Source: Candidatus Hodarchaeota archaeon (GTDB lineage: Archaea; Asgardarchaeota; Heimdallarchaeia; Hodarchaeales; Hodarchaeaceae). From it: a stretch of 46,104 nt of DNA. The notes under the pieces are model-generated. The model was given only the letters and a program-made list of their open reading frames with translations. It made no database searches and was not told the origin of the DNA. Below, one piece after another: positions 10,239-33,039 of the stretch. The translations under genes were made by a program, and so were the position numbers. The stretch lies in contig JAEOTQ010000075.1 of assembly GCA_016839785.1 (NCBI GenBank), positions 1-46,104 on the forward strand, given 5' to 3'. Within the stretch, counting starts at the first letter, position 1. Every line of letters starts with the position of its first letter.

Positions 10239-10865
10239 TCAAGTTTCGTCTTCTAAAGATTTTAGAATATTGCTAACTTGGTTTTGATACGTTAAAAGCA
10301 CCTGACCAAGAGAATCGAAGGCTTTGACTACGTTTTCTCCTGTTTGTGCAGAGGTTGTATGGAATGGGACTTTCAATTCATTATTTTCGTATTCATCATG
10401 ATACTCGTTCTCAATGCTACTGATGAAACTTTCGACGGGTTCGATATAAGAAAAATCTGATTCTACTAAATCGGATTTATTTCCAAGGATCATTATGGGA
10501 ACTTTGCGTTGAGAATAAATGAAAATCTCTTCCTTCCATTTTTCGAGAGATTGTAACGAAGTTGGGCGTGTGAGGTCAAAAACAAGAATACCTGCTCGTG
10601 CACCACTAAAATACATATTTCTGATAACATCAAATCGTGCTTGTCCTGCTAGGTCCCATAACTGAAGACTAAGCGTCTTTCCATTATGCTGCAATTGGAA
10701 TGTTGAAATATCGGTACCTATAGTCAATAAATAATTTGTAGTGAATGCTTTTCCAAGCAAGTGTTGAATAAGAGCCGTTTTTCCTACTCCTCCATCCCCA
10801 AGAACACATACTTTGAAATTTGTACGGAATATTCCCTCGGCGAAATCCATTTTTGCCCGTGGCAT
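10239..10865 (-). CDS. Rab-like small GTPase
   Basis: G1 GDGGVGKT, G2 YLLTIGTD, G3 WDLAGQARF, G4 GNKSDL, G5 TSAQTG; no C-terminal Cys. Confidence 0.93.
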   Translation of the reverse strand: MPRAKMDFAEGIFRTNFKVCVLGDGGVGKTALIQHLLGKAFTTNYLLTIGTDISTFQLQHNGKTLSLQLWDLAGQARFDVIRNMYFSGARAGILVFDLTRPTSLQSLEKWKEEIFIYSQRKVPIMILGNKSDLVESDFSYIEPVESFISSIENEYHDEYENNELKVPFHTTSAQTGENVVKAFDSLGQVLLTYQNQVSNILKSLEDET

Positions 10866-19902: not shown

Positions 19903-21003
19903 TTAGAAAAGCTGTTCAATTGGATTGAATAGATTAAATTTATCTACTCTTTCGCTTTCTTTAACATCTACCATCATTTTTCGTATGAGGGCAGCTGCGT
20001 ATTCTAATCCTTCATCCTCAAAAATTGAAATATGTTCATGTCCACTCACCTTCCACCCTGTTTTCGGGCTAAGTTTTTTGAGTTCTGAGACAAGATCAGT
20101 AATATCTGCTTCACTTGCTAGCAAATTGTTTAGGATGGTATCTTTTATTACATCTACGGTTAAATCATCCATATTAACTTGAGGTTCGGCACCTGCTTTT
20201 GGGTATTTTTGAAGTAAATCAACCCAATTCGTATCTAATTCTAGCATACTTGGTCTCATATCATTAAGTAAACTGAGGATTTGCATTTGGTCACCTTTAG
20301 GTTTTGTTAGCTCTTGTGTTAATGCTCTGCTAAAAATCCTGCAATTTACTAAACTAAATCCAGGTAAAAGTACTTTTCCTTGTCGAGCATTACCAGGTAC
20401 CAATCCAGTGAAATATTTTGACTCTAAGGAATTAATAATGACCTGTTCTAGTGTTGTAAAAGGAATTACATTACTTAGTAGGTGAATTTTCCTCTCTGTA
20501 ATACGGAAACCACGACTATAATATACTATCGGGGAAGTTTTAGCTTCTTTTAAACCGTCTACGATAGCCTGTGCAAAGTTCTCTGCCTCTTTACGAATAA
20601 TTTCATTCAAATCTCGTTTTGTTATAACCGCAGCTATAGGGTAATTGTCATAAGGTAAGAAGGAGGAAATAGATGAAGCTTGTGATAAGGAGTTTAGCCA
20701 GAATTTCTTAGTACAGGAATCTAAAATGATAATCATACCTTCCGCTGTACTACCGAACCGTTCACGTAATTTTTGCCATTTTTGCTGTCCACCTACAGGC
20801 AATAATAAACTAAAAAATCGTCCTTCATCAAATGAAAGTCGTAAATATTCTGTTTCAATTGTACCGCCAAAATCTTCCTCATAACTCATTGATTGATCTG
20901 TACGAGCAGCTAGTTTGGTTACTAACGCAGTTTTACCACCAGCTTGAGTACCTACTACAAGGAGTCTTCCCGCATTGATTGATTCTTCTCGTGTGTCTGA
21001 CAT
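19903..21003 (-). CDS. atypical Arf/MglA-like GTPase with large insertion
   Basis: G1 GTQAGGKT, G2 GGTI, G3 PVGGQ (no Asp), AEGMIIILDS, G4 TKRD; ATG 21003 lies 4 nt after the upstream TGA. Confidence 0.8.
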   Translation of the reverse strand: MSDTREESINAGRLLVVGTQAGGKTALVTKLAARTDQSMSYEEDFGGTIETEYLRLSFDEGRFFSLLLPVGGQQKWQKLRERFGSTAEGMIIILDSCTKKFWLNSLSQASSISSFLPYDNYPIAAVITKRDLNEIIRKEAENFAQAIVDGLKEAKTSPIVYYSRGFRITERKIHLLSNVIPFTTLEQVIINSLESKYFTGLVPGNARQGKVLLPGFSLVNCRIFSRALTQELTKPKGDQMQILSLLNDMRPSMLELDTNWVDLLQKYPKAGAEPQVNMDDLTVDVIKDTILNNLLASEADITDLVSELKKLSPKTGWKVSGHEHISIFEDEGLEYAAALIRKMMVDVKESERVDKFNLFNPIEQLF

Positions 21004-21007
21004 AACT

Positions 21008-22954
21008 TCAACTCCAATTGTACTTAATATTTCCAATAACCGTCATAAGATCTTTAGGATCTCTAGCACGTGCTTTTTCCAAGACTAAATGCAAATTGTT
21101 CTTTTCAGGACCCAAAGAAAGGTATTTATGAGGTCGATAAACAATTTCAACAGGATCAATACCTGCTTCATCCATAATATCGACTTCTTTAAAGGCTAAT
21201 GCAGATATTCCCTCAGGACTAGTATCATAATAGATAATATATGTTAAATCATCAACAGTAAATACTGTTTGTCTCAACTTAACATTATTATGAAGTGAGG
21301 AAACTTTAAAAGATGGAAGAGATAAGGCTTCAATCACAAGTGATTCTAACAGGAGATTTGTATCGTAAAACCAGGGATAACCGGCCATTTGGGCATAGCG
21401 ATATTCAAATTCGAATCCAGAACGTACCCAGATACTCATATTCTCAGGATGCACTCCTTTTTCGTCATGGTATATTCCGCGCTTAAAATCAATCGCTACT
21501 TGAAATATTGGTACAAATTTCTTCGCTGTAATTAAAGAGGTTGTATCTTCGCTTGAGAAAATATTCTTTAACAATCTAACAGATTGAATTTCCTCGTGAA
21601 TAAGCGTTTCTTCAAGAATTTTCATTAGTTGTTCGCTAACATGATTCCATATTCTCACTGGGAGTTTATTGGTTAAGATATAATTTCCATCAATTAGATC
21701 ATTCCGATCTACCCTTCCTGATAGAATAATATTAGCTAGTTTCTGACAAATCTCTAAAACATCAAATTTAGGTTGGCGATCACTCAGCATAAAGAGAGTA
21801 GATCGAAGAATTTCTGTTTCAACCCCGCTGTAGTCGTAAATCCATGCACGTGAGGGAATTTCCACTACATTGTCAATTACAAATTGCGAACTTTGCATAA
21901 ATGCGTTATTTTGTTTCAATTTATGAAACGGTGCAAGGATTCTTTCAAATGTCCCTTGAAGATTTCCGATATTACCTAGAATTTCACTATTGCGGTGTTT
22001 ATCCATCACTGAAAGACCGAGTAGGTGTTCTTTCTTAAGTCTTAATTCCCCAGGTTGGTCATCTCCCAGACTACTTCCCATAGTTTTCATACGCATGACG
22101 TCTGAAAGCCATGCGATGAATTTACCGATAGGATATTTGTCTATAGATGAATCATAGAATGTATTTAAACCCTTTCTGAGTTCGTCTCTAGGATAACCTG
22201 GTAGTAAATTATCCATAATTGAAAACACTTGACCTTCATTAAAATGCCCATCACTTGGATCCCGTTGGTATTTAGACCATTCAAATTGCTCTTCGATCCG
22301 TCTAAATGTGAGAGATGTCTCAATTAGGCTATCAATTTGATGAAAAGATTGCTTTGTTTGTGTTTTATGGGTTAATACGTCCTCTGATAATGCTGTTAGT
22401 ATTAAAGCATCAGTTAGTACGTTTTGTTTACGATAAGTATTGTTTGGACCAAAGTAAATATTCCGAACATCATTAACTGCTTCTCTGACATTTGTATATT
22501 CACTATAAGGCCAGAGGACTAAACCAAAAAGTTCTGGTAGTTCATGACGATGAGCCGATTGGAGTAGTTTCAGACGTTGTTCAAGTATATATGCGCGTAA
22601 TGAGTCGATATCAGAAAATAAGGACTTAATACTTGCATTTTCACTGTTCACTACATCCTTCCAGTAAGTAACATCTTCTTCAGTAATTAAATGCTTTATT
22701 TGGGTTTGAAGATCGTGTAAATGTGACTCTAATCCAAATAGATTATCATTAATTGGGACAATCACTGGAGCTAGCCACTGCTCAATCATTTGATAAGATA
22801 GGAAGAATTTTTCAGTCATTAGTTGAATATCTTCAAGATCTGAGGGTAAATTTCGAGCGGAACGAATTATATCTAGCTGGGGAAATAGATAATTTATACC
22901 AAGTTCTCCATATGCCTCTTCCAATTGTTTTTCAATATTCGATAAATCAACCAT
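21008..22954 (-). CDS. large hypothetical protein (648 aa)
   Basis: Long soluble ORF; GGAGG SD before ATG 22954; operonic with its neighbours. Confidence 0.85.
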   Translation of the reverse strand: MVDLSNIEKQLEEAYGELGINYLFPQLDIIRSARNLPSDLEDIQLMTEKFFLSYQMIEQWLAPVIVPINDNLFGLESHLHDLQTQIKHLITEEDVTYWKDVVNSENASIKSLFSDIDSLRAYILEQRLKLLQSAHRHELPELFGLVLWPYSEYTNVREAVNDVRNIYFGPNNTYRKQNVLTDALILTALSEDVLTHKTQTKQSFHQIDSLIETSLTFRRIEEQFEWSKYQRDPSDGHFNEGQVFSIMDNLLPGYPRDELRKGLNTFYDSSIDKYPIGKFIAWLSDVMRMKTMGSSLGDDQPGELRLKKEHLLGLSVMDKHRNSEILGNIGNLQGTFERILAPFHKLKQNNAFMQSSQFVIDNVVEIPSRAWIYDYSGVETEILRSTLFMLSDRQPKFDVLEICQKLANIILSGRVDRNDLIDGNYILTNKLPVRIWNHVSEQLMKILEETLIHEEIQSVRLLKNIFSSEDTTSLITAKKFVPIFQVAIDFKRGIYHDEKGVHPENMSIWVRSGFEFEYRYAQMAGYPWFYDTNLLLESLVIEALSLPSFKVSSLHNNVKLRQTVFTVDDLTYIIYYDTSPEGISALAFKEVDIMDEAGIDPVEIVYRPHKYLSLGPEKNNLHLVLEKARARDPKDLMTVIGNIKYNWS

Positions 22955-30577: not shown

Positions 30578-30652
30578 AGCCCCGTGGTGTAGAGGCTATC
30601 ATATGAGGCTTTGACCCTCACGACTCCAGTTCGAATCTGGACGGGGCTGCCA
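30578..30652 (+). tRNA. tRNA-Gln(UUG), CCA encoded
   Basis: Acceptor AGCCCCG/CGGGGCT; anticodon arm TGAGG-CTTTGAC-CCTCA; T arm TCCAG-TTCGAAT-CTGGA; G73 then CCA. Confidence 0.95.
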
Positions 30653-30693
30653 TTTCTTCTCTACATAATTTAAATGAATATAAACATTAGTCA

Positions 30694-30765
30694 AGCCCCA
30701 TAGTGTAGTGGTTAGCACCTCAGGCTCTGAATCTGATGACTCCAGTTCGAATCTGGATGGGGCTG
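30694..30765 (+). tRNA. tRNA-Gln(CUG), no encoded CCA
   Basis: Acceptor AGCCCCA/TGGGGCT; anticodon arm TCAGG-CTCTGAA-TCTGA; same T arm; G73. Confidence 0.95.
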
Positions 30766-30870: not shown

Positions 30871-31269
30871 ATGAACCAAAACACACACCCATTTGACTAT
30901 TTAGCTGGACATCGGACGATCAGTTTGACGACTTATTATAAAAGTGGTAAAGGTGTAGCTACACCTATAGATTTTATTAGGAAGAATGATCACTTATATG
31001 CATCAACTAGAGTGGATTCGTATAAAGTAAAACGGTTGAGAAATAATCCCGATGCCAAAATAGCCCCGTGTACGATGCGTGGAAAGCTTAAAGGCCCAGA
31101 AATTAATGTGAAAGTGTGGATAATTCCGAAAGCAGAGGAGCAATTCGCATCTGAAACGATGGAGGAAGCGATCACTCTCTTATACAAAATTCTTATTAGA
31201 TTATCGAAATTAGCTTTTTGGAGAAAAGAGACAGAGCGACTTTACTTAGAAATCACTCCACAAATCTGA
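30871..31269 (+). CDS. PPOX-class (F420-dependent) oxidoreductase-like protein
   Basis: ISLTTYYKSGKGVATPI, SYKVKRLRNNP, IAPCTMRG. Confidence 0.85.
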   Translation: MNQNTHPFDYLAGHRTISLTTYYKSGKGVATPIDFIRKNDHLYASTRVDSYKVKRLRNNPDAKIAPCTMRGKLKGPEINVKVWIIPKAEEQFASETMEEAITLLYKILIRLSKLAFWRKETERLYLEITPQI

Positions 31270-31302: not shown

Positions 31303-33039
31303 TTACTTCTTTTTTTGCCTCTTTTTCTTTGAATGAGGATGCTGTTTAAATATTTTTGCCCATGTATCACGCAATGTGCTCGTACGATTAAATACTAGGT
31401 TGTCTTGGGAAAATTCCTTTGGATCAGTGAAAAAGTATCCTAACCGCTCGAATTGATAATGGCTAGCTGGTTTAGCATTTCCTAAGCTAGGTTCTACATA
31501 TCCTTTTGTTGTTGTTAATGAGTCAGGATTGTAATCAGGCAACCCAGAGGGATCTTCACGCTTGAATAACCGATCATATAATCGAAATTCTGCTTCCAAC
31601 GCATGTGGTTTTGAGAGCCAGTGGATTGTACCTTTTACCTTTCTTCCATCTGGGGACGATCCACCCTTTGTGTTGGGATCATATGTACACTGAAGTTCGA
31701 TAATTTTTCCAGAATCATCTTTTACAAAATTGGTACAAGTAATAAAGTAAGCATTCCGGAGTCGAACTTCTCTACCCACTGTTAATCGATAAAATTTCTT
31801 TGGAGGATCCTCCATAAAATCCTCTTGCTCTATGTACAGCTCTCGTGAAAATGGTACTTTCCGAGTACCTTTAGATATATCTTTTGGATGGTTTGGTATT
31901 TCTAAATGTTCTACCTGGTCATCGGGATAATTTTCAAGAACGATTTTCAATGGATTTAAGATAGCCATTACTCGATTAGCTTCTTGATCTAGTTCTTCAC
32001 GAACACAGGATTCCAATAAACCATAATCAATATTCTTCTCTCGCTTTGTAACACCTACTCTACCAAGAAAAGTTCTCATCGCGCTTGCAGGAAATCCACG
32101 ATTTCGCATTCCTGCTATTGTTGGCATTCGTGGATCATCCCATCCCGAAACATAGTTTCCATCAACTAATTCTAACAGCTTACGTTTACTTGTAATCGTA
32201 TAGGTTACATTCAATCGAGAAAATTCAATTTGCCGAGGTTTATGCTTTAATGCACCAACGGCTAGAAGTTCATCCACAAACCAATCATATAAGGGTCTAT
32301 GGGTTTCAAACTCAAGGGAACAGAGCGAATGAGTTATTCCCTCAATGGCATCTGATTCCCCATGTGTAAAATCATAACTGGGGTAAATTATCCAATCAGT
32401 CCCTGTTCTATAGTGGCTAACCCTTTTAATTCTATACATGATTGGATCACGCATGAGTAGATTGGGAGATGCCATATCTATTTTAGCACGTAAAACCTTT
32501 GAACCGTCCTCAAATTCACCGTTACGTATCCGTTTAAATAAATCGAGATTTTCCTCAATTGTTCTGTCTCGGTAAGGACTATTAACCCCTGGTTCTGTTA
32601 AGGATCCTCTTTGTTCTCTTATCTCGTCAGCACTTAAATCACAGATGTATGCCTTTCCAGCATTAATCAAAGCCACTGCAAGATCATATAATTCCTCAAA
32701 ATAATCTGAAGCAAAATATAACCGATCCTCCCAATCAGCTCCTAACCATTGAATATCCTCTTTAATTGCCTCTACATAGTCCATGCTTTCTTTGGAAGGG
32801 TCAGTATCGTCAAAACGAAGGTTAAAAAGGCCATTATATTCTTGGGCAATACTATAGCTTAAGTAAATCGCCATTGCATGGCCAATGTGCATCCAACCAT
32901 TGGGTTCTGGAGGAAAACGTGTATGAACTCTTCCTTCGTTTTTATTTGTTCGTATATCATCAACCACAATTTTTCGGATAAAATCAAGTCCGGAATCATC
33001 CTTCTTTGTTTCATCAGGCGGATTCTCTGAGGTTTTCAC
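31303..33039 (-). CDS. glnS: glutamine--tRNA ligase (GlnRS)
   Basis: VHTRFPPEPNGWMHIGH, LRFDDT, YDFTH, ITHSLCSLEF, PRQIEFSRL, ITSKRKL, GWDDPRMPT, KVKGTIHW, QFERLGYF; AGGTGA SD before the GTG start. Confidence 0.93.
   Translation of the reverse strand: MKTSENPPDETKKDDSGLDFIRKIVVDDIRTNKNEGRVHTRFPPEPNGWMHIGHAMAIYLSYSIAQEYNGLFNLRFDDTDPSKESMDYVEAIKEDIQWLGADWEDRLYFASDYFEELYDLAVALINAGKAYICDLSADEIREQRGSLTEPGVNSPYRDRTIEENLDLFKRIRNGEFEDGSKVLRAKIDMASPNLLMRDPIMYRIKRVSHYRTGTDWIIYPSYDFTHGESDAIEGITHSLCSLEFETHRPLYDWFVDELLAVGALKHKPRQIEFSRLNVTYTITSKRKLLELVDGNYVSGWDDPRMPTIAGMRNRGFPASAMRTFLGRVGVTKREKNIDYGLLESCVREELDQEANRVMAILNPLKIVLENYPDDQVEHLEIPNHPKDISKGTRKVPFSRELYIEQEDFMEDPPKKFYRLTVGREVRLRNAYFITCTNFVKDDSGKIIELQCTYDPNTKGGSSPDGRKVKGTIHWLSKPHALEAEFRLYDRLFKREDPSGLPDYNPDSLTTTKGYVEPSLGNAKPASHYQFERLGYFFTDPKEFSQDNLVFNRTSTLRDTWAKIFKQHPHSKKKRQKKK

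Follow-up and report, generated by a model that had tools for sequence, protein, structure and literature searches.

How can an archaeon make use of glutaminyl-tRNA synthetase (GlnRS), when archaeal tRNA-Gln is held to be unsuited to that enzyme? Passages in two reviews (PMC9499178, PMC8762117) state that archaea have no GlnRS, or almost never have it, and always make Gln-tRNA by the indirect route, and they explain the absence by an idea of Tumbula et al. (2000), in which archaeal tRNA-Gln, with A1:U72 and A73, is incompatible with GlnRS. We analysed a stretch of 46,104 nucleotides (nt; hereafter the window), contig JAEOTQ010000075.1 of a Candidatus Hodarchaeota archaeon (assembly GCA_016839785.1), in which a gene for a bacterial-type GlnRS and a pair of tRNA-Gln genes, with anticodons UUG and CUG, face each other (Table 1). 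We consider it reasonably probable that this is a direct-glutaminylation module, composed of a GlnRS of bacterial origin and, convergent and downstream, a tandem pair of tRNAs on an archaeal scaffold that serve as its dedicated substrates. For Hodarchaeales and Kariarchaeaceae, one preprint mentions in passing, in the part available, that GlnRS neighbours cox genes (bioRxiv 10.1101/2024.07.04.601786); searches of the literature on GlnRS in Asgard, Heimdall or Thermoplasmat* archaea, or on G73, found no analysis of the tRNA side.

An earlier note, made from the letters of this DNA alone, described two tRNA-Gln genes with A1:U72, G73 and A37, identical T arms and CCA in only one copy, next to a GlnRS gene, and every item of that description is borne out. 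ARAGORN finds these two tRNAs in the window and no others. The Rfam tRNA model (RF00005, gathering score 29) gives 56.9 bits to the UUG gene and 62.9 bits to the CUG gene, and R1, a tRNA-Gln covariance model that was built from G73 genes and still finds A73 genes at 60–80 bits, gives 93.5 and 91.6 bits. Read from the sequence, both genes have A1:U72, G2:C71, C3:G70 and G10, and both have G73 as discriminator (positions 30649 and 30765) where classical archaeal tRNA-Gln has A73. The anticodon loops are of 7 nt with U33 and A37, CTTTGAC in the UUG gene (C38) and CTCTGAA in the CUG gene (A38), and the D-loops are of 8 nt, AGAGGCTA and AGTGGTTA, respectively. The T arm, TCCAG-TTCGAAT-CTGGA, is the same at 17/17 positions, and the CUG gene is followed by TTC in place of the CCA that the UUG gene encodes.

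The determinants that the note had named are also in print, in the passages seen of three papers: A1–U72 and the D-loop for GatDE (PMC2330236), A73 as the archaeal discriminator (PMC9499178), and a bacterial identity set of G73, U1–A72, G2–C71, G3–C70, G10, U34, U35, G36, A37 and U38 (PMC9976931, Table 1). The window tRNAs combine the two. They carry G73, G2:C71, G10, U35, G36 and A37 of the bacterial set together with the A1:U72 of classical archaeal GatDE substrates, which reverses the bacterial U1–A72 and is likewise a weak pair; C3:G70 replaces G3–C70, and neither gene has U38.

The synthetase gene reaches 707.3 bits with the NCBIfam glnS model (TIGR00440, cut-off 425.8) versus 337.2 bits with the archaeal gltX model, below its cut-off of 401.75, and it has three Pfam domains, catalytic and anticodon-binding: tRNA-synt_1c (319 bits) and both C-terminal domains. 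Compared with structures in the Protein Data Bank (PDB), it scores 647–671 bits against GlnRS chains of about 550 amino acids (662 bits for the 1gsg and 1qtq chains) versus 407–417 bits against chains of 776–817 amino acids; we take the shorter chains to be bacterial and the longer ones eukaryotic. Judged by its sequence, the enzyme is bacterial in type and is not a eukaryote-like ancestor. Its nearest named relatives, 84–85% identical, come from records titled Candidatus Heimdallarchaeota; all remaining matches are at most 62% identical and are bacterial, except one from a record labelled Thermoplasmatales (locus L083). In a single-gene tree of 92 sequences, the enzymes of genus g1, which includes the source genome of the window (G000), form one clade nested among bacterial GlnRS (99 in the Shimodaira–Hasegawa-like approximate likelihood ratio test, SH-aLRT). 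The enzymes of families f3 and f4 form another (100), which joins the g1 clade and one Syntrophales sequence (91), and L083 is placed apart from the Heimdall enzymes, with Cloacimonadota (94).

Residue equivalents were counted by hand in an alignment to chain 1gsg_P. The HIGH motif is present, and Leu136, which a passage of a review names as critical for specificity (PMC9976931), is kept as L147. The equivalent of Asp235 is Thr246; this position is Thr or Ser in 11/11 g1 enzymes versus 0/77 bacterial ones, Val in f3 and f4 and Asn in L083. Asp235 presumably reads the 2:71 and 3:70 pairs, and the Thr or Ser of the g1 enzymes, set against an archaeal C3:G70 (G3:C70 in Escherichia coli), is only a lead.

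G000 (248 contigs, 84.5% complete) also contains a second class-Ic synthetase, which we take as glutamyl-tRNA synthetase (GluRS), and adjacent genes for GatD (472.5 bits) and GatE (347.9 bits). Parts of the direct and of the indirect route are therefore both present in one genome. R1 has seven matches in G000: the window pair, one Gln-like gene on contig C137 and four other tRNAs. Two further 'tRNA-Gln' candidates from ARAGORN in intron mode were rejected on inspection by hand, one at C69:31230-31343 being Pro(UGG)-like, with A1:U72 and an intron in the D region, and one at C95:9167-9273 being Val(GAC)-like, also with a D-region intron. With Rfam, no more than 22 tRNAs are found at E ≤ 0.01, so many tRNA genes of this genome are interrupted or unassembled.

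The 22 genomes of genus g1 (21 and G000, mostly incomplete drafts) place the pair in context. GlnRS lies above the cut-off in 12 and was not found in the other 10, either with the family model or with the window protein as query. The two G73/A37 genes occur in every one of the 12 GlnRS-bearing genomes, and in 11 of them the pair lies on the opposite strand, 34 to about 620 nt past the 3' end of GlnRS; in G016 the distance is 117 kb. Among the 10 genomes in which GlnRS was not found, the pair appears only in G021, at one end of a contig of 1.7 kb. The 25 complete linked genes (the CUG copy of G021 is truncated and has no 3' end) show no variation in their loops, CTTTGAC and CTCTGAA, or in the discriminator G73, while the GlnRS proteins have diverged down to 65–67% identity.

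Eight of the 12 GlnRS-bearing genomes (G003, G008, G009, G010, G012, G015, G016 and G020, with G010 and G016 being single-contig assemblies) have, elsewhere, separate genes for tRNA-Gln(UUG), tRNA-Gln(CUG) or both, with A73 and G37. Their D-loop is of 9 nt, and they are usually interrupted by an intron, which lies at the canonical site 37/38 or else in the T-loop; theirs is the sole type of tRNA-Gln seen in G001, G006, G007, G013 and G018, in which GlnRS was not found. Because the two sets coexist, the pair in the window is an extra, synthetase-linked set, and not a set of native genes altered in place; the earlier view that native tRNAs were retuned is not supported in that form. The pair differs from the ordinary tRNA-Gln of its lineage in having G73 for A73, A37 for G37 and, in most copies, a D-loop of 8 rather than 9 nt (AGYGGTTA in 11/12 g1 CUG genes with G73). 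A single-gene RadA tree, largely unresolved at its base, places G004, G005 and G018, in which GlnRS was not found, beside GlnRS-bearing genomes, so the module has been patchily lost or is unassembled there and does not mark one clean clade.

The origin of the pair can be narrowed by comparison. Identity of the window genes to archaeal tRNA-Gln is 0.75–0.80 in either lineage (0.76 with the native g1 set and 0.76–0.80 with the G73 genes of the L083 lineage described below; 0.63–0.72 with the linked tRNAs of f3 and f4) versus 0.51–0.68 with ten tRNA-Gln genes that lie within 4 kb of a bacterial GlnRS. Since all ten of these bacterial genes, which come from 9 of 60 loci scanned, also have U1:A72, we reject a transfer of the tRNAs from bacteria together with the enzyme. 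By these identities the pair is archaeal in type, as the earlier note had said of its scaffold, and it would be either an old duplication or a transfer between archaea, both of which fit the pairwise values.

The native set has a different fate in the subclade to which the window belongs. In G000, G002, G014 and G019, which have GlnRS, and in G004 and G005, the sole A73-type gene found has the loop TTCTAT, with anticodon CUA and U37; R1 found no A73 gene for UUG or CUG in G000 (84.5% complete), only the pair and this CUA gene, which is flanked there by a uS2 gene and a RimK-like gene. All six CUA genes have a canonical bulge-helix-bulge intron at 37/38, as do the CUG genes of other species. 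They lie 1–2 kb from radA, as does the native A73/G37 CUG gene in 9/10 other g1 species (about 4 kb in the tenth, G008), and on this shared position we regard the CUA gene as the positional orthologue of native tRNA-Gln(CUG). The change from CUG to CUA may have happened twice, because G005 falls beside G020, a genome that retains CUG, on the RadA tree. A genome-wide reassignment of UAG in G000 was considered and rejected: 425 long open reading frames (ORFs) end in TAG, with downstream read-through lengths that match those of TAA and TGA, and UAG is an ordinary stop in this genome.

GatE is also divergent in this subclade, scoring 333–352 bits versus 533–578 bits in other g1 genomes. The G000 protein has the catalytic GatB_N domain only, with no GatB_Yqey at E ≤ 0.01, and GatE of G010 has GatB_Yqey at 63.9 bits; according to a passage in PMC2330236, it is this tail domain that contacts the D-loop. 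G020 has two GatDE pairs, one standard and one divergent. In the subclade of the window, no A73 gene for UUG or CUG was found, the native CUG gene now reads CUA and no tail domain can be recognised in GatE; taken as a whole, it seems that the direct route has prevailed there. A bolder idea, to which we give little credence, is that some Heimdallarchaeia have two naturally orthogonal glutamine systems, GlnRS with G73 and short D-loops and GluRS/GatDE with A73, and that this redundancy freed the native CUG gene to become CUA in situ in six species, possibly twice; on this view, the archaea closest to eukaryotes would have an amber-reading tRNA in the making, with a remodelled GatDE to serve it.

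The same arrangement occurs in a second archaeal lineage. At L083, in genome G041, two tRNA-Gln genes flank glnS on one strand, and both have A1:U72, G73 and G37. No other tRNA-Gln is among the matches examined in G041, which has GatE at 538 bits. We took the best tRNA locus of each of 31 related genomes: GlnRS lies above the cut-off in 12, and all 12 have G73 tRNA-Gln, usually flanking GlnRS, while twelve relatives without GlnRS have A73. The D-loop is the 8-nt AGYGGTTA in 17/17 G73 genes of this lineage, and is of 9 nt in every A73 gene of the g1 and L083 lineages. Among these relatives (G042–G059), most of the 12 GlnRS-bearing genomes have the order tRNA-Gln(CUG)–glnS–tRNA-Gln(UUG) on one strand, and some of the linked tRNAs have G1:U72 in place of A1:U72.

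If the window does hold a direct-glutaminylation module, GlnRS would charge the linked G73 tRNAs directly with glutamine. The G73 copies would be suited to this because G73 is the discriminator determinant of bacterial GlnRS, and because the remaining elements (a weak A1:U72, G2:C71, G10, U35 and G36) are already compatible. The intron-bearing A73/G37 genes would stay on the archaeal route, in which a non-discriminating GluRS acts first and GatDE, reading A1:U72 and the D-loop, follows. In the subclade of the window, the takeover would be further advanced, with the pair probably supplying all decoding of CAA and CAG. The G73 tRNAs may have been retuned after the enzyme was acquired or may have been permissive beforehand; either order fits the data.

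How far does the pattern extend across the phylum? In a sample of 301 Asgard genomes, with GlnRS called at E ≤ 1e-120, the enzyme occurs in 41, all from families f1, f3 or f4, and in 0/222 genomes of the 27 remaining families; the sampled genomes of f2 and f5, two families of Heimdallarchaeia, yielded no GlnRS, and six tRNA-Gln genes seen in f2 and f5 in a first sample are all A73/G37. The G73 search matched a pattern to 3' halves of tRNA-Gln that have no intron and end in G73, and 4 of 30 matching genomes, in which the halves of the T stem do not pair, were set aside. G73 tRNA-Gln is found in 19/41 GlnRS-bearing genomes (12 of genus g1 and 7 of g8) versus 7/260 others, a contrast that overstates the signal, as related genomes are not independent, and that comes to 2/8 GlnRS-bearing genera versus 4/62 others at genus level. 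G73 is thus strongly enriched with GlnRS in Asgard archaea, and is neither necessary nor exclusive.

This weaker genus-level association is one of several points that weigh against a module of enzyme and dedicated tRNAs. The seven G73 genomes without GlnRS are G021, G205, four from f5 and one from f11 (97% complete), and the five from f5 and f11 have only GluRS-level matches to glnS. In the L083 lineage, G73 without GlnRS was found in G043, a single contig of 1.79 Mb in which a CinA-like gene and a C25-peptidase/helix-turn-helix gene flank the G73 gene, and G050 has G73 with no GlnRS found. The GlnRS-bearing f3 and f4 genomes (12 genomes of the first sample, 24 tRNA-Gln genes examined) have 20 genes with A73, 3 with G73 (the CUG genes of G032, G036 and G040, 1–5 kb from GlnRS) and 1 with U73, and some of the A73/A37 genes lie 78–150 nt from GlnRS (G024, G032). 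C3:G70 and C38/A38 depart from the E. coli identity set, and that set is not universal among bacteria, because among the ten bacterial tRNA-Gln genes beside GlnRS 3 have A73 (7 have G73) and 9 have G37 (1 has A37). GatD is kept in 36/41 and GatE in 37/41 relatives, GlnRS hosts included, and A1:U72 is retained in the window pair, for which the indirect route could therefore still be open. Three features of the searches bear on the same side: co-occurrence of GlnRS and its tRNAs in drafts is partly trivial, as adjacent genes share a contig; R1 was itself derived from G73 genes; and a gene with an intron 3' of position 33 escapes the pattern search.

Of the two bases that the earlier note had tied to GlnRS, then, one is supported in part and the other is not. 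G73 is rare in Asgard genomes without glnS, is concentrated in those with it and recurs in the second lineage. A37 is not specific to GlnRS and falls to the condition that the note itself had named for its refutation: A37/A73 tRNA-Gln occurs in at least 22 Asgard genomes of families in which the enzyme was not found (at least 19 from f14 and at least 3 from f27, among 150 of 296 matches listed), with GlnRS in 0/68 f14 genomes and 0/7 f27 genomes. A37 is also found in 16/24 tRNA-Gln genes of the GlnRS-bearing f3 and f4 genomes. Being common where GlnRS is absent and rare beside bacterial GlnRS, A37 is not to be taken for an adaptation to the enzyme.

These points are the strength of a reading by lineage drift or hitch-hiking, in which G73, A37 and the short D-loop are neutral and a GlnRS that tolerates either discriminator integrated, or became fixed, beside a tRNA-Gln locus. 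The spread of A37, the G73 genes of f5, f11 and G043, the mostly A73 genes of the f3 and f4 hosts, the A73 and G37 genes beside bacterial GlnRS and the weak association among genera all suit it. We nevertheless think drift unlikely, because every linked copy is G73/A37 and every unlinked one A73/G37 in eight species with GlnRS up to about 35% apart, a partition that drift or gene conversion would blur; because G73 and the 8-nt D-loop recur together in a second lineage with a separately placed GlnRS; and because G73 is confined to so few GlnRS-less Asgard genomes.

Less likely again is that the pair is a shared substrate of GlnRS and of GluRS with GatDE, G73 and A37 serving to broaden acceptance, so that the two routes are redundant and not partitioned. 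In its favour, every g1 G73 gene keeps A1:U72, a GatDE determinant (in the part seen of PMC2330236), G000 keeps GatD and GatE although no A73 gene for UUG or CUG was found there, and the G73 genes of G041 are the only tRNA-Gln found in a genome with a high-scoring GatE. Set against this are the D-loop, which GatDE reads and which differs between the two sets, the lack of a recognisable tail domain in GatE of G000, and the eight genomes that keep both sets, which is difficult to reconcile with a single set working in both routes. We give the least weight, as a rather improbable history, to pre-adaptation, by which G73 variants arose first and only lines that had them could fix a transferred GlnRS, the tRNA being permissive and not retuned. 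The G73 genes without GlnRS in G043, in G050 and in the f5 genera g14, g15 and g18 (of one class with the GlnRS hosts) speak for it, but G043 and G050 may equally be secondary losses, and in g1 the G73 genes accompany intact A73 genes as additional copies linked to GlnRS. A synthetase with dedicated tRNAs is thus the account that we prefer.

Other features of these loci are listed in Table 1. The stop codon of GlnRS in the window is 538 nt from the end of the CUG tRNA gene, and the space between them contains an ORF with a weak PNPOx-like match, which is probably no part of the GlnRS–tRNA module; the gap is 34–93 nt in eight other g1 genomes and about 600 nt in three. Two genes for Ras-family small GTPases, typical of Asgard archaea, give the contig its Asgard-like character. 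In f3, three tRNA-Gln-like genes with A1:U72 and A73 lie within a few kb of GlnRS and have TTTAGG or TTTCGG in the anticodon region, with loops of 6 or 8 nt that do not fit a 7-nt loop on a 5-bp stem; they may be pseudogenes or unusual decoders. Genomes of f4 have two GatDE pairs, one of which shares a contig with GlnRS, and two kinds of tRNA-Gln(UUG), with A37 and with G37, both A73; G033 has a UUG gene with U73. In f4 we also observed a single in-frame TAG inside otherwise intact matches to GluRS, GatE and a RadA paralogue.

Table 1. Coordinates of the features discussed, in the window and in related genomes.
Feature	Location	Strand	Remarks
tRNA-Gln(UUG)	window, 30578..30652	+	72 nt (30578-30649) and encoded CCA (30650-30652); ARAGORN, Rfam (30578-30649)
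tRNA-Gln(CUG)	window, 30694..30765	+	72 nt, without encoded CCA; ARAGORN, Rfam (30694-30765)
Bacterial-type glutaminyl-tRNA synthetase	window, 31303..33039	-	578 amino acids; convergent with the tRNA pair; Pfam, TIGR00440
ORF with weak PNPOx-like match	window, 30871..31269	+	132 amino acids; PF01243, 29 bits (cut-off 28.1); between the pair and GlnRS
Ras-family small GTPase	window, 10239-10865	-	131.5 bits
Ras-family small GTPase	window, 19903-21036	-	28.5 bits
GatE, G000	C24:34142-35857 (locus L004:1372-3249)	-	divergent
CUA tRNA, G000	C137:7569-7677 (locus L128:30-138)		tRNA-Gln body, A1:U72, A73, U37
CUA tRNA, G002	C10:37765-37873
CUA tRNA, G014	C20:11132-11240
CUA tRNA, G019	C184:61714-61821
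CUA tRNA, G004	C135:18617-18724
CUA tRNA, G005	C175:5083-5189
tRNA-Gln(CUG), L083	2826-2897		same strand as the next two
glnS, L083	3031-4602
tRNA-Gln(UUG), L083	4689-4760
tRNA-Gln-like gene, f3	G032:C72:6538-6609 (locus L203)		odd anticodon loop
tRNA-Gln-like gene, f3	G036:C173:20164-20235 (locus L204)		odd anticodon loop
tRNA-Gln-like gene, f3	G040:C30:9307-9378 (locus L205)		odd anticodon loop
GlnRS, G033	C20:8756-10348
GatE/GatD, G033	C20:30306-33664		same contig as GlnRS
GlnRS, G037	C54:17088-18686
GatE/GatD, G037	C54:67246-70580		same contig as GlnRS
Matches with one in-frame TAG, f4 (examples)	G025:C9:94926-96440; G039:C291:37-1923; G027:C173:3429-4298		GluRS, GatE and RadA-paralogue matches

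Several known systems resemble this one in part. Like the E. coli GlnRS system, the window has a full-length bacterial-type GlnRS and tRNAs with G73, a weak 1:72 pair, G2:C71, G10, U35, G36 and A37; unlike it, the host and the tRNA body are archaeal, with A1:U72 in place of U1:A72, C3:G70 in place of G3:C70, C38 or A38 in place of U38 and Thr at the position of Asp235. The archaeal indirect pathway, for which M. thermautotrophicus with its A1:U72/A73 tRNA is the model, is represented by GluRS, GatD and GatE in G000 and by the A73/G37 genes of its relatives, whereas the window tRNAs differ from that model by G73, A37, a shorter D-loop and their place beside GlnRS. GluRS2 of Helicobacter pylori and its tRNA-Gln were reportedly described by Salazar et al. 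in 2003. In that system, too, two routes serve one amino acid and are kept apart by identity elements at the acceptor end (PMC2777447, in part), although there a duplicated GluRS works with a single tRNA set, and here a foreign enzyme is found with doubled tRNA genes. Deinococcus, Thermus and Bdellovibrio likewise combine GlnRS with an amidotransferase, and thus direct with indirect machinery, in one genome, but their GatCAB is thought, in the passage seen of PMC4206432, to serve Asn, and the archaea described here keep the Gln-specific GatDE and two classes of tRNA-Gln.

Two archaeal lineages thus have a bacterial GlnRS, and in both of them G73 tRNA-Gln lies beside it; one of them keeps the old tRNA set alongside the new, and in the subclade of the window the old set appears to be fading. 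The case shows the fitting of a borrowed enzyme and its tRNAs to each other, and makes the idea of a tRNA barrier to the transfer of GlnRS directly testable. These genomes offer candidate natural orthogonal pairs of tRNA and synthetase, and also natural intermediates on the way from the indirect to the direct route, in the archaeal group nearest to eukaryotes.

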